Shown piece by piece: positions 29,426-56,955 of a DNA stretch of 64,000 nt (position 1 is the stretch's first letter; each line of letters opens with the position of its first letter). Origin of the DNA: Eledone cirrhosa. Lineage: Eukaryota. Under the pieces are notes generated by a model that ran no database searches, was not told where the DNA came from, and saw nothing but the letters and a program-made list of their open reading frames with translations. The stretch lies in assembly GCA_964016885.1 (NCBI GenBank), contig OZ024743.1, forward strand, positions 151,466,001 to 151,530,000, in the 5' to 3' direction. The translations under genes were made by a program, and so were the position numbers.

Positions 29426-29463
29426 CCTTTACCGGTTTCGCAGTTCTTCTGCTTTTCAAAAGG
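29426..29463 (-). ncRNA. minimal type-I hammerhead ribozyme motif (U3-A8 core variant), mirror copy
   Basis: Exact reverse complement of 29534-29571. Confidence 0.7.
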
Positions 29464-29533
29464 TGAGTTGAGATGGAGGGTCTGTGGTTTTTCTCAGATG
29501 TGAGAAAAACCACAGACCCTCCATCTCAACTCA

Positions 29534-29571
29534 CCTTTTGAAAAGCAGAAGAACTGCGAAACCGGTAAAGG
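29534..29571 (+). ncRNA. minimal type-I hammerhead ribozyme motif (U3-A8 core variant)
   Basis: CCTT-TTGAAAA-GCAG(aagaa)CTGC-GAAAC-CG-GTA-AAGG. Stem I is CCTT/AAGG and stem III is the palindrome ACCGGT. AATAAA follows. Confidence 0.72.
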
Positions 29572-32500
29572 AACCAAATAAATATATATATTTAAAAAAA
29601 AAATAAGACTCCAGTTGCATTTTCGATTTCATCTCTTTTTCTTTATACTTTCACTCGTGTAGGACACCTCGGTTATTTTTCATTTTGTAAAAAAAACCTC
29701 ACTTTCTAATATATATATATATATATATATATATATATATATATATATACATACATACATACATACATACATACACACACACCACACTAGTAATTGATGA
29801 TGATATATATATATATATATATATATACATACATACATACACATAAACCACACCAGTAGTTGGTGCAGGTTGGTGTTTTGTTTTGCCAGGAGAGTTGTGA
29901 TATGGATTTGAAGGATGTGGTTTTTACTTTTCCTTGTACAATATGGGTCTGCCGTGTGGGGTCGAATGCAGGTTTATGCATTACATTTGTATTAGTTTGT
30001 GGATAGCTTTGGCTGTTCTGGATGTATTTACATACTAGTTAAGGTAATTGACAGTCTTAGTTACACACGCACACACATATAGTTTGGAAATTGCGTGGAG
30101 CATGAAACTCCTGGCCCTCGAGCCACTTGTGTAGTTTTGCAGCTACAATAAATTATATGTACACAGACACACACAGAGACATGCACTCACTAATATATAT
30201 ATATATATATATATATACACATATATGTAACTAAATATATATATATATATATATATACACATATATGTAACTAAATATATATATATACATATATATATAT
30301 ATATATACTCACACACAATAGATATACAATTATACATACACACATATAGATACACACATACAATGAACCAGATCATATATATATATATATATATATATAT
30401 ATATATATATATACACACATATAGACACTCACATAAATACAATGAACCAGATCATATATAAGTATATATATATATATATATATATACTTATCAGTTGAAT
30501 GGACAACCAGTGATAAATATTTGAATGGAACCAGATTCCTCAAAGATACAAAGCGCATATAGTAAAAAAAATAAACATGATAACCCAGTAAACTCTTCAA
30601 CTGAAACTAATAGCTTCTCATAGCACTCTAGCTGCGTGCTTAGTTTTAGTAAATATTTTAGCATTCACTATCAGGATATTTTTTTTTTGTTGCATTCAAT
30701 TCTATACTCAAATTCTCATACTGCTAATACAGCAAATTTTGTTTCAGCATTTCATTTCTTATAGTAAAAGTTAGACTCCTACTTTTATCTCATTGGAACC
30801 CATTATGTAACATAAATCAACTGTATATTCAGAGATATGATGATGATCATCATCATCATTTTTTACGTCTGTTTCTCCATGCTGGCATGAATTGGAGAGG
30901 TCATTTTGAAGCCATTTCTGATTCCAACAAATTCAGTCACTTTTTACAGCATACAGGGTTATCATGCACTATTCTAAAAACCAAGATACACACAGTATAA
31001 CTGATATATATTGGTATTTACTAACACACACACAGCTACACTATATTATAATTTCCCTTATTTTTAAGTAACTGTGTCAGGGAATCGAATTATAATATTA
31101 TTAGTTTCATCCAGTGGATTGTGGCCATGCTTGATCACTATCATAAAAAATAATGATGCATATTGTATACAAATATATTTTTCTTAGGCATTATTCTGAC
31201 AATGAGACACATTATTCGTAGTTTTCCAGTTTATATAAACTGAGCAGTAAGGAGATATGGGATGGGTACTCTTAGCTCTTGAATAATAACCCCCACACTG
31301 CTTATTAATTTTTCAGATATTTATCCAACCACCCCCTGCTCTTATTCTACCCCCACATGACAAAATGTACATTACTAGAAATCCCATGCATTATAAAATG
31401 AATAAGATAGGTTGTGGTCACAATATATAATTTTAATAACTAATTCTGTTTTTTTTTTAAATCAACAGACAACCTAGAAAAATTACTGATTCCCTCTACC
31501 ACCCGCTTATTCCACCTCTGCTATTATTTGAGACCTGAGAATAAGTCTATTTAATATTTAGTTTGAATTGTTGGCATTTATTGGTTTGAGGATGTAAGCT
31601 GGAAGTAGGTTCTAGAGGGTTGCATTCTCATATAGACAGATTATGTAAACTGATTAGCAGAGAGTATGGGAGGTGAGAAAAATATGTGAGTAATAGGAAG
31701 AGGTGAGTTTATGTTTAGGTTTCTGTGTGTGGCAGGGGGGATATAATCACATATAATTCTCCAGATGTGTGAACAGTAGAAATATACTTTTGAAAGCTTT
31801 ACAATAAATATTTATTGAATAAGATAGCAAATATCTAAAACTATTGCCAGTTATACCATAGATAACAGTACCCACACGGATATTCTCTAATTGTGGTGAA
31901 AGGTAACATTCTATAAAGCAAAAGTCAAGACATTCCTAATTTCATCATAAATAAACAGATATCACACTGAGAATGTTATTAATGTATACATTAAACAATA
32001 TGCCAAACTAAAATGAAGTTCCCTCCATTTACAAACTATTGCTAGAATACTTTCAAATAAAAAATAAAATAAAAACATATTTTACTAGTTTTTTTTTTAT
32101 AGCTATGTCAGAGGAAGAAGGACATTTCATGTGGCCTCTCAAATTGGTGGAAGGAAGTTATTCTCAGACTAGATAACTGACCCAAATATTTTCAACTGAG
32201 TGAATTATGATAAAGGCACTCAATAGCCAGGATATGCTGTTAAAACAGGTAACAATATGAATTATTTTATCCAAGAGCAAGAACTGTCCAGCCAACTGTC
32301 TTCCACATAGGTTTTTGTCTACTAAATTTCCACCACAGGGCTTTGGTCAAATCTGAGGCTATGATAGAAGACACTTGCAAAGGTGTTACACAGTATTATC
32401 AAAGTAGGAACCACATAGTTGCAAAGCAAAATTCTTAATCACTTAGACATACATGCTTTTTGGTTTTGAAATTGGTTTTTGGTTTAGCCATTATTTTTAT

Positions 32501-34479
32501 AACCATGAGGTCAAAAAGAATTGTATATTAATAACACTGTTTAATTGAAGTAGAACTTTCAGGAAATTAGAATATTTAGAAATCAAATAGCTGTATTTTA
32601 AAACAATGTTCCAATTGAAGCATGGTCATTAATCAGAACAACTGTTATATTCATGGAACTTGAAAAATAACCAAATTTATATATAACTACTTCATAGATT
32701 GACACAACACATCTGAGATTATCTATAGTTCTAAATAATACAAAACTCTCCATTTCACAGTGTTCATATTTAAATCTAAGCCTTCCATCATAATTTGCTA
32801 TAACAACCTTTTTGTCAAGATATATATCAGACATCAGCTTGATGATATAGAAAGTTATTTTACTAAATCTCCAAATTCTTTACTATATTTAAAATTAATT
32901 GAAACATATAAACAGTGTAATTCTTTAGAAATATAATCACAAAATAGTGGAAGAGTTCTCTTTACTCGTGAGATTAAATTGAAAGGGATTAGTCAAATAT
33001 GTCTTTTTCTTTATTGCTTAGTTAGAAAGGAAAGTATACCCCCATGTCCCTTTTATTTTTTTCAGAGGAGACATGTCTTGAAACCAGAGGTTAAACCAAG
33101 CAAGAGATAATGTTTACCACCCAAATGGACCAGAGTGGGATTTGAACTTGGAGTGCAAAAAGTTGGAAGAAAAACTGCAAGACATCTAGGGCTCTAACAA
33201 CTTCTCCAGTTCACTGCCCTAAAACGGTACAACTGCAGGAGGAATATCAAAATTGAACTTGACAGAATTTGAACTCAGAATGCAATGTGCCAGAATAGAT
33301 AGTACAAAGGGTTAGATTCTGTCAATTAGTCTAGACATATTTCTCTTGGAATATGCAACACAAAGCAAACAACCTAGACTAATATTTATGCATGTATCTG
33401 GGACGTTTTTGCTTATGTCTTTTTCTATATATTTGTTTATACATTTCCAAAGCATTATTATTATTATTATATGTAAGGTTTGTAACAACAAAGTTAAATT
33501 CCTAGTCTAACCATATGGATTACATTACTAACTGCACTTACTGATCTTGTATCTTATTGTTTACGTTGTATTTACTGAATGGAATTGGCTGTTATTTTGT
33601 TTAACCATCAATGCATTAATAATCCTTTTTGAATGAATCAATAGTGTTATAATATAGAAAAGATTTATAACCCCAATGCTATTCATAAAATAAAAATTAA
33701 AAGATTACTATATACACACACACACATATATATATTATATATATATATATATATATATATATATATATATATATATGACACACAGACTGAAACCACTTGG
33801 TGTTGCAATCAGGATTTTACTTCTCTCTCTCTCTCTCTCTCTCTCTCTCTCTCTCTCTCTCTCTATATATATATATATATATATATAAAGGAGGTTGTAC
33901 CCAAAGTAACAAGCACAAAGGAAAGTTTTCATTGTTGTTATGCCACATTTAACAAATCTTAAAACTATAATTTCAGAATTAGGTAGGTGTGTGTGTGTGT
34001 GTAAGTGTGTGTGTCTATTCGATTCTATTTCCACCAGATGCACACATATTATGTTACAGTAAAAAGATACATCCACTGATTAAAAAATAAACAATCCAGA
34101 ATTATGTAAATACATTTGAATATTTGAGTGTTACTGAAATGAATTGGTTAAAAAACAAAAGAAAATGAAGCTTGGAAACATTTGGGAAAAATATTTTTTT
34201 AAAAATTCAATTACATAAACACCTAGAGGGTTCAAATCAAGTTATACAATACAACTACACTGTGTTTAACTCATACTACCATAATAGGATTTTTTTTTTC
34301 TTTGCTAAGTAAATCATTGAATTACAAATACTATTCAAAAATGTTTAAGTTGCTAGTCTCTAACAAAATTACAAAAGAAAATTTAAGGAATTTTTCATGT
34401 TTGTGTCAACTTTGCTTTTCATAACTCCACAGTTAATGAAATGATTAAACATAAAAAATAATCAATTATATTCACTTAT

Positions 34480-55785: not shown

Positions 55786-56055
55786 GAGGTCACCAGTTGG
55801 TGCTACTGGTAACATGTATCCCAGTACAACCTTTCCCATGGTCGGGTCGTTGGCGACTAAATTGGCAACTCCACCAAGGTTTCTTGGTGAGGAGGGTGAC
55901 TTTGGACACATGCAGGACTAAAACCAAAACCTGTCAAAGGGCAAAGGAGCTCTTAAGAGTCAATGGCCATCCAAAATCATCAGGAGAGATGACCCCTTAG
56001 CCTTTGTCAAGGCAGAATTCTAGGAGAAGGAAAACTCTAATATAACACCTGCAAC
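55786..56055 (+). mobile_element. possible RTE-type 5' leader fragment
   Basis: Contains CTAGGAGAAGGAAAACTCT, a motif I recall from RTE-related 5' regions. The first ~115 nt are strongly structured. Confidence 0.4.
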
Positions 56056-56381
56056 TCTGATGGTATCCAATGATGTTGACTTGTTCTTCTTTTTGGTAAA
56101 TATCATCTTGGTTAAGAGAGTGGGACTGGCTTTGTGCAGTGCCTTTGCTCACTATAAAAGCTTCACGGCACAGGCATTGCTTTATATCTGGAGATCTCTC
56201 TGCACTTGTCGTCACATGGTACCATGGGCCCAGCACTATGTGTCAATGGTTGTCACAGGTGTAGTGTTTGTACCAGAGTTTTCAAGTCGCTGGCTGGACT
56301 AAAAAGTCACACTCATTCAGCCCATTGGTAGGGGTTCTCCTACATGGATATAAAGTAGTGGCCGTACTCGAAAATGAGTTG

Positions 56382-56761
56382 TATATATATATACACATAT
56401 ATATATATATATATATATATATATATATGTATATATATATATATATATATATGTATATATATATGTATGTATATATATATGTATGTATATATATGTATGT
56501 ATATATATGTATGTATATGTATATATATATATATATATATATATATATATGTATATATATATATGTATATATATATATATATATATATATATATATATAT
56601 ATGTATATATATATGTATGTATGTATATGTATATATATATATATATATATATATGTATATGTATGTATATATATATATATATATATAAATGTATATATAT
56701 ATGTATGTATGTATATGTATATATATATATATATATATATATATATATATATATATATATG
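56382..56761. repeat. (TA)n/(TATG) tract
   Basis: Seen directly. Confidence 0.97.
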
Positions 56762-56888
56762 TAGGAGGTGAGTTTTATTGTAGTACAATAAAGCAATGCA
56801 GATATCGGATAAGAAGCACTCTACAGTTTGTAGGACTGGAGTATACATAATATATAAGAACAAAAGATGGTTAAAAGAGTTCCATGTA

Positions 56889-56955
56889 TTTTATTATGCG
56901 CATTTCAAAAACAAATATCATCATGCAATAATATTTGTGTTTTCATCAGATAAAA
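56889..56955 (-). ncRNA. type-I hammerhead ribozyme motif
   Basis: Reverse complement reads TTTTAT-CTGATGA-AAACACAAATATT..GATATTTGTTTTT-GAAAT-GCGC-ATA-ATAAAA. Stem I is 6 bp, stem III is the palindrome ATGCGCAT, and the cleavage triplet is AUA. Confidence 0.8.

Follow-up and report, generated by a model that had tools for sequence, protein, structure and literature searches.

Type I hammerhead motifs at the (TA)n-inserted 3' ends of Penelope-like elements in Eledone cirrhosa

A 64,000-nt stretch of the Eledone cirrhosa genome (assembly GCA_964016885.1, contig OZ024743.1, positions 151,466,001 to 151,530,000 of the forward strand; hereafter the window, in whose own numbering coordinates are given) contains six type I hammerhead motifs, all near the 3' ends of repeats inserted into (TA)n microsatellites. 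The motifs belong to five repeat families. By their protein motifs, family A is assigned to the Neptune clade of Penelope-like elements (PLEs), and families B, C and E to the Hydra clade; family D is a non-coding unit of 840 nt. It is probable, in our view, that these hammerheads fold as dimers of one family, that they cleave weakly or with the help of a protein, and that their cleavage is not needed for integration. A sequence-only reading of the same window had proposed an undescribed, diverse ribozyme-bearing PLE system targeting microsatellites, in which a palindromic stem III might act as a family-specific pairing code. The placement of minimal type I hammerheads at the 3' ends of microsatellite-targeting PLEs is borne out by family identity, clade motifs and entry into (TA)n. 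However, the proposed single system resolves into one Neptune family, three Hydra families and one non-coding unit, and it is a known system with new families, since (TA)n-targeting Hydra elements with palindromic hammerheads are already tabulated by Craig 2021 (PMC8557442).

Hammerhead motifs in the window and in the genome

The descriptor used for the search accepted the cores CUGANGA, CCGANGA and UUGANAA. Stems I and II each had to have at least 3 pairs, with one mismatch tolerated at the base of stem II; GAAA, H17 and the two pairs closing stem III were also demanded, whereas a palindromic loop was not. The U3-A8 and U4C cores, both published variants, were admitted post hoc, when the motifs were already known. 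This independent descriptor returned exactly the six motifs located by the sequence-only reading, with the same stem III sequences and cores, and with the same oppositions at the base of stem II (A.G in B, A.A in C and D). In 100 block-wise dinucleotide shuffles of the window, the mean number of matches was 0.14 (maximum 2) and that of palindromic matches 0.01, a rate far below the six observed. The core C3 U4 G5 A6 N7 G8 A9 / G12 A13 A14 A15.1 / U16.1 H17 is full in C, D and E, while A carries the published U3-A8 covariant and B the published U4C. In the window families stems I, II and III surround the core, which opens at stem I, as in type I topology. Positions 10.1-11.1 next to the core are unpaired and family-fixed in B, C and D, and paired in A and E. 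The sequence types, counted earlier as at least four, are indeed several, and as repeat families they number five.

A (TA)n tract lies 3' of every motif, as had been noted. Measured from the predicted cleavage sites, the distances are 76, 142, 43, 57 and 135 nt, and about 155 nt for D (overall range 43-155 nt). Because only 19% of window positions have (TA)5 within 250 nt, six of six motifs with a 3' tract exceeds background.

To the genome as a whole (3.0 Gb; the window is 34% G+C and has no N) the strict descriptor was applied through an unbiased sample of 119 evenly spaced 10-kb stretches (1.19 Mb), 80 of them from the four largest contigs, from which family counts are coarse. It gave 128 matches, against 2.7 in 20 shuffles. 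This extrapolates to about 3.2x10^5 motifs per genome (bootstrap 2.0-4.5x10^5), or 2.3x10^5 when 33 matches in arrays of a 310-nt unit are left out. These numbers are far above the 2,000-9,000 minimal motifs of schistosome, coelacanth and Xenopus (PMC4209133), and 126,247 type I motifs are given for axolotl (PMC7229834); the descriptors differ, so that the comparison between species is rough. Among the 95 non-array matches, (TA)5 occurs within 250 nt downstream of 77 and upstream of 28, against a background of 24%. In 42 of the 95, stem II begins with a 1x1 mismatch next to the core and in 20 with a single bulge, so the mismatch outnumbers the bulge of the published consensus about two to one (PMC4209133, PMC3088659). 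At 10.1-11.1 a mismatch is known as U.U (PMC8557442, PMC3088659). Most families retain the full core; U3-A8 covaries, stem changes between related families are compensatory, and H17 is A, C or U across families (H being demanded by the descriptor). In addition, an abundant family has a single bulge before stem II and the stem III AGAACU (L131, L140, L143, L159, L177, L181, L182 and others); its variant AGGACU could form tandem G.A pairs in a dimer.

Chance occurrence of such motifs in AT-rich, repeat-rich DNA was considered. Rfam hammerhead models gave no match to the motifs, either in the window scan (among the matches listed, 150 of 213) or with A, B, D and E scanned singly, and within that scope the Rfam scans returned only microRNA-type hairpin matches. 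The z-scores of single-motif folds were unremarkable in four of five. A looser descriptor let in satellites (clusters F5 and F21) and chance matches, one of them in the 3' untranslated region (UTR) of the window copy of E; it gave 72 clusters, of which a stricter filter removed 28 ahead of the counts on 44 clusters and on 22 families given below. However, the excess over shuffles in both window and genome sample, the fixed position at element 3' ends and the compensatory changes in the stems refute a chance origin, which we hold to be extremely improbable. As judged from the sequence, the six motifs are confirmed as real, non-random type I hammerhead folds of PLEs.

Element families carrying the hammerheads

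In the family A insertion (29354..29709), two 3' ends of a Neptune-clade PLE, both truncated at 5', meet head to head near 29497, with (TA)n on both flanks; the short-ended arm is on the minus strand and the tailed arm on the plus strand. The motifs at 29426..29463 (minus strand, predicted cleavage after 29430) and 29534..29571 (plus strand, predicted cleavage after 29567) are identical in sequence and are the two arms of this single inverted insertion. Each has the stem I CCUU/AAGG, the U3-A8 core UUGAAAA, a stem II of 4 bp and the stem III ACCGGU. The whole insertion would fold as one long near-perfect hairpin (-252 kcal/mol), which would mask both hammerheads and not pair them. The link to a reverse transcriptase (RT) and endonuclease comes from loci L280, L298, L300 and L301. 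Among 25 loci retrieved with a query upstream of the 3' end, two have a GIY-YIG endonuclease with a CX2-5CxxC linker and CCHH 1.4 kb upstream of the family A end; the Pfam GIY-YIG match is 8.8e-7 (L300, L301), and the RT of L301 has the motifs GxKF and DKG. By the motif definitions of Craig 2021 family A is of Neptune type, although Nematis also has a linker. It resembles Neptune PLEs in these RT and endonuclease features, in its microsatellite target and in its inverted truncated arm, and differs in its U3-A8 core, in the reach of most copies (19 of 33), which extend only to 65-73 nt upstream of the cleavage site, and in a sister family with A13C. With 17 anchors in 1.19 Mb, family A should have roughly 4x10^4 copies.

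Family B (34900..35007, plus strand) is represented by 108 nt from the 3' end of a young Hydra-clade PLE; the copy is 5'-truncated, has the short end and leads into (TA)32. Its hammerhead (34921..34969, plus strand, predicted cleavage after 34964) has the U4C core CCGAAGA, the basal A.G in stem II and the stem III ACAAUUGU. Positions 121-226 of the family B query match about 40 scored loci at 99-100% identity, and in L240 and L241 a Hydra-type endonuclease open reading frame (ORF) lies about 1.5 kb upstream of the hammerhead. Family C (51193..54793, plus strand) is a 5'-truncated Hydra-clade PLE with an endonuclease, a 2.9-kb 3' UTR and a short end in (TA)n. The endonuclease (51193..51857, plus strand) is a Hydra-type GIY-YIG protein with a CxCX5C linker, CxxC and CxH, and without CCHH. 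The hammerhead (54703..54747, plus strand, predicted cleavage after 54744) has the core CUGAAGA, the basal A.A, a stem I of 3 bp and the odd-length stem III ACAUUGU. Read at first as an imperfect palindrome, this stem III is the fixed form of the family (27 of 27 strict matches) and no product of decay. The link between endonuclease and hammerhead recurs in four other loci (L302-L305).

Family E (56762..58229, minus strand) is a 5'-truncated young Hydra-clade PLE with its tailed end in (TA)n. The hammerhead (56887..56957, minus strand, predicted cleavage after 56895) has the core CUGAUGA, a long AU-rich stem II, an 8-bp stem I and the stem III AUGCGCAU. The C-terminal part of a Hydra-type GIY-YIG endonuclease is at 57852..58229 (minus strand); in the window copy one Cys of CxxC is changed and the linker is lost to truncation. 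Upstream of the hammerhead this endonuclease is found in many of 30 loci. Two motifs were earlier described as downstream of GIY-YIG ORFs; these are C and E, which lie 2.9 kb and 0.9 kb 3' of same-strand ORFs, respectively. Pfam GIY-YIG E-values are 0.02 for C and 0.003 for the window copy of E, and neither match reaches the curated cut-off. When the endonucleases of B, C and E are aligned, CxCX5C, CxxC and CxH are common to them and CCHH is absent, so the motifs place the three families in the Hydra clade. The RT of E (L242, L243) has SDKT and RWT, where the Hydra definition has DKT and RWK; the B and C copies examined stop short of it.

These features agree with published Hydra-clade PLEs, whose endonucleases have the same motifs without CCHH and whose RT has DKT (PMC8557442). 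Files S1 and S2 of Craig 2021 tabulate Hydra elements that target (TA)n, with a palindromic stem III of even or odd length and a common basal mismatch in stem II, as here, and include Hydra-1_Obim of Octopus bimaculoides; Craig 2021 was the only relevant source that our literature search on octopus hammerheads gave. However, the hammerhead sequences of B, C and E match no row of File S2, and the Hydra rows there have U.U, U.C or G-C, with A.G, A.A and U4C absent from them (PMC8557442). In addition, the 3' UTRs here are 0.9-2.9 kb, whereas published whole Hydra elements are mostly <3 kb, and the tails are 90-165 nt against 30-40 (PMC8557442). With metazoan PLE hammerheads in general, the motifs share type I topology, a palindromic loop 3, the dimer model, U3-A8, opposite-strand pairs and many sequence families per genome (PMC4209133, PMC3088659).

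Family D (50067..50770, minus strand) is present as a partial copy, flanked by (TA)n on both sides, of an 840-nt unit that is non-coding and circularly permuted. Its hammerhead (50212..50303, minus strand, predicted cleavage after 50216) has the core CUGAUGA, an A.A basal to a long stem II arm, C17 and the stem III ACUCGAGU. Stem I of the window copy is CpG-decayed, with CCTG/TGGG in place of CCCG (25 of 30 rows) and CGGG (19 of 30 rows).

Insertion anatomy

In each family linked to a protein, copies end at either of two fixed 3' points, both downstream of the cleavage site. The short ends lie at about +76, +42, +49 and +45, and the tailed ends at about +142, +207, +146 and +135, for A, B, C and E, respectively. 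Head-to-head pairs have one tailed and one short arm in 48 of 51 cases, a count in which most loci come from best-match searches and the E query included the tail. The 5' truncation, the inverted 5' copy and the tail at one end are together the insertion anatomy of Penelope. The two ends and the mixed pairs match the two RT start sites of the Poseidon element of the green anole, which explain its tail (PMC11167929), and Fig. 2 of Craig 2021 (PMC8557442). We infer that (TA)n is nicked by the RT-endonuclease, which then begins to copy an RNA left uncleaved by its hammerhead from two points within it; the two starts would yield the tail and the inverted arm, with both arms probably copied from one template. 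Anole Poseidon also has an AT-rich target, but it belongs to another clade and its start sites have no homology to that target (PMC11167929); the short end here, in contrast, coincides with an internal TA-rich motif that could anneal to the target.

A template cut by its hammerhead would leave 5' ends at the cleavage site. A pile-up of this kind was sought and not found: 5' ends within 10 nt of the cleavage site occur in 0 of 217 matches (36 of them from the unbiased sample). Since no copy starts there, and since anole insertion in vitro is independent of the hammerhead (PMC11167929), an uncleaved template is suggested. In family A, 19 of 33 copies begin at -73 to -65 from the cleavage site (for example, window position 29495 and L143:2850-3140), and longer copies have CCAAT-like boxes just upstream, which we take to be a promoter-type motif. 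This start is possibly a transcription start within the terminal repeat.

As to the origin of the arms, variants in E insertions were concordant between arms at 13 positions and discordant at one, arm divergence within pairs was 0.014 against a comparison value of 0.034, and the subfamily agreed between arms in 17 of 17 typed family A pairs. Variants common to both arms of an insertion favour one template. Signs of an origin from two templates were looked for: 59 of 67 head-to-head pairs without intervening (TA)6 are of the same type, the other eight not having been sorted singly. As a further observation, head-to-head insertions are long near-perfect inverted repeats, from which double-stranded RNA (dsRNA) is expected if they are transcribed through.

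Dimer folding and the stem III palindromes

Of 33 even-length clusters, 25 have a Watson-Crick pair at the innermost position of stem III, on which there was no filter (p about 2e-8, a value that ignores the incomplete independence of clusters that are partly subfamilies of each other), and of 26 clusters of at least 8 nt, 18 have a palindrome in their central four bases. Thus self-complementarity is kept far beyond chance while the sequences differ, in agreement with the sequence-only reading. For the five window families, stem III was computed at +2.4 to +6.0 kcal/mol as a monomer and -2.3 to -10.7 as a homodimer; because the monomer is unstable and the homodimer stable, folding is predicted only as a dimer. 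In the dimer model of Cervera 2014 (PMC4209133), stem I is also formed between partners. The palindrome would let two tandem hammerheads of one transcript swap stems I and III as a tethered homodimer.

That the palindrome is a selected, family-specific code blocking dimers across families is, by contrast, very unlikely. The 44 clusters do have 35 different stem III sequences, nine of ten cross pairs among window families are unfavourable, and only 1 of 231 pairs of the 22 families is fully compatible when stems I and III are both counted. However, 5 of the 231 pairs have identical palindromes, where random palindromes matched by position predict 4.5 and a uniform null 1.2, so that families share them at the chance rate and there is no avoidance. 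The published Hydra table is similar, with five Hydra magnipapillata families sharing the one stem III ACTTTAAGT (Craig 2021, PMC8557442), and here ACAAUUGU is the stem III of four clusters, whose stems I are of three unrelated kinds. The B/C heterodimer (-1.7 kcal/mol, stems I of 3 bp) is nearly compatible in comparison with C/C (-2.3 kcal/mol). Because the double hammerhead, as modelled, pairs both stems between partners, the palindrome alone cannot be the whole code; a compatibility of 1 in 231 is what drift alone would give, and tethered tandem dimers need no code. Any family specificity would then follow incidentally from drift in stems I and III together with tethering. Neither the code idea, A13C nor the counts given here turned up in the literature searched, although Luense 2017 and supplements outside the search could hold them; on heterodimer cleavage tests only unrelated work was found.

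Several observations weigh against dimer folding and insertion as set out above. None of the six motifs has a same-family partner on the same strand in the window, and direct tandems of A, B, C or E were absent within 6 kb in the loci examined, so a dimer-competent tandem transcript of these families is itself inferred; a direct tandem of pseudo-long-terminal-repeat type is present for D. The AGAACU family (14 matches in the unbiased sample) is without a palindromic centre. Arm variants in C are weak (6 concordant, 9 discordant), a first count for A was swamped by the T/A tract, and the similarity of arms could partly reflect gene conversion. Core positions of D are no better kept than the flanks (0.084 against 0.090), as is expected of dead copies, and so do not speak for function. 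Meanwhile, the clade placements rest on motifs and not on a tree.

Core-altered families and the role of cleavage

A sister of family A, here called A', has GCAA for GAAA (A13C) in 12 of 12 readable copies, with stem II and ACCGGU intact. From mutagenesis work, A13C is expected to abolish hammerhead activity. The copies were found by an anchor outside the core, and 4 of 16 rows were unreadable or truncated. A' has the stem I UUU/AAA and 11 anchors in 1.19 Mb, and its insertions are two-ended and in (TA)n like those of A. A scan allowing one deviation in the core gave a single match, A' being missed because four stem I pairs were demanded. Loci of A' outside the window are L047, L049, L062, L144, L166, L178, L185, L187, L224 and L290. 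A13C in A' hints that cleavage may be dispensable.

It is possible, if unlikely, that the fold is kept mainly as an RNA-pairing or protein-binding structure for the RT-endonuclease, with catalysis dispensable or lost in some active families. The abundance of A' with its stem II and palindrome kept, the young family B with U4C plus A.G at 10.1-11.1 in 41 of 42, and copies that span the cleavage site are in line with this, as is the finding that hammerhead mutants of anole Poseidon left in vitro insertion unaffected (PMC11167929). However, the full core in most families, the covariation of U3-A8 and the variation of H17 argue for retained catalysis, and U4C is viable in a viroid hammerhead (PMC3088659). 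In addition, A' may ride on the family A protein with little selection on its own RNA. In a more specific and rather speculative form, also unlikely, the core-altered amplified families would keep a strand-swapping fold as a structural handle, by which RNA is loaded, in the manner of a retroviral dimer-initiation site, on a dimeric RT-endonuclease for two-ended priming. We prefer weak or protein-helped cleavage that integration does not need; the anole Poseidon hammerhead is protein-assisted (PMC11167929). Cleavage would most likely trim tandem precursors or make circles, as in D and the arrays of 310-490 nt.

Retrozyme-like units

All 30 loci of family D map within one 840-nt unit, whose longest frame is 114 aa. 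Nearly all copies end in (TA)n or (TTA)n, 140-161 nt past the cleavage site; they are mostly sub-monomeric, and two of the 30 loci (L070, L075) exceed one unit. D behaves like a large retrozyme, likely mobilised by PLEs. Arrays of a 310-nt hammerhead unit with the stem III ACGCGU were seen at L164:3850-9340, L173:1-3600 and L179:8430-10000; the arrays have junctions in inverted orientation and finish in (TA)n, and four ends in the three of them fall at two points, about +130 and +164. Other hammerheads in tandem on one strand recur about every 487, 467, 484 and 626 nt (L228, L161, L036 and L046/L245, respectively) and are probably more retrozyme families.

Like animal non-LTR retrozymes, D and the 310-nt arrays are non-coding and tandem or permuted, with one type I hammerhead per unit (PMC7229834; Li, Clavereau and Pollet 2026 preprint). 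However, published non-LTR retrozymes are about 150-450 nt (PMC7229834), whereas D is 840 nt and mostly sub-monomeric. Moreover, D and the 310-nt units have fixed ends in (TA)n, and the arrays have inverted junctions and two ends, which is Penelope anatomy and sets them apart from published retrozymes; the word 'tail' is absent from the available part of the Li 2026 preprint.

Other features of the window

A 535-aa RT and GIY-YIG ORF of another PLE (58180-59787, plus strand) lies opposite to and abuts family E. It has a CX2-5CxxC linker and a long stretch between RT motifs A and B, and is followed by 112-nt repeats (60002-60233); a relaxed search of 800 nt found no hammerhead behind it. Relatives of this PLE adjoin or lie inside other elements in L025, L073, L106 and L302. 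The window also contains a broken Helitron (8126-11712, minus strand) with fragments of Helitron_like_N (6e-26) and PIF1 helicase (2e-47). ORF-end fragments of non-LTR elements (LINEs), presumably RTE-like, lie at 15131-15568, 36364-36681, 41391-41837, 44254-44757 and 48800-49025, one with zf-RVT; several begin directly after (TA)n tracts. Three short open frames (45878-46400, minus strand; 1822-2127 and 47280-47753, plus strand) have no Pfam match, and 46083-46400 resembles a nuclease C-terminus.

Implications

An estimated 3x10^5 intact motifs in dozens of families, some of them 99-100% identical, provide natural variants for the question of what the hammerhead does in PLEs, among them the pairs A and its A13C sister A', and B and C with their heterodimers. 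The rule of one tailed plus one short arm in 48 of 51 pairs limits how the second strand can be made during Penelope insertion, and an insertion signature in common with PLEs links retrozymes directly to their machinery. Large amounts of dsRNA could also arise from the many perfect inverted repeats. If the structural-handle idea were true, hundreds of thousands of Penelope ends would keep a palindromic fold with cleavage crippled in whole families.

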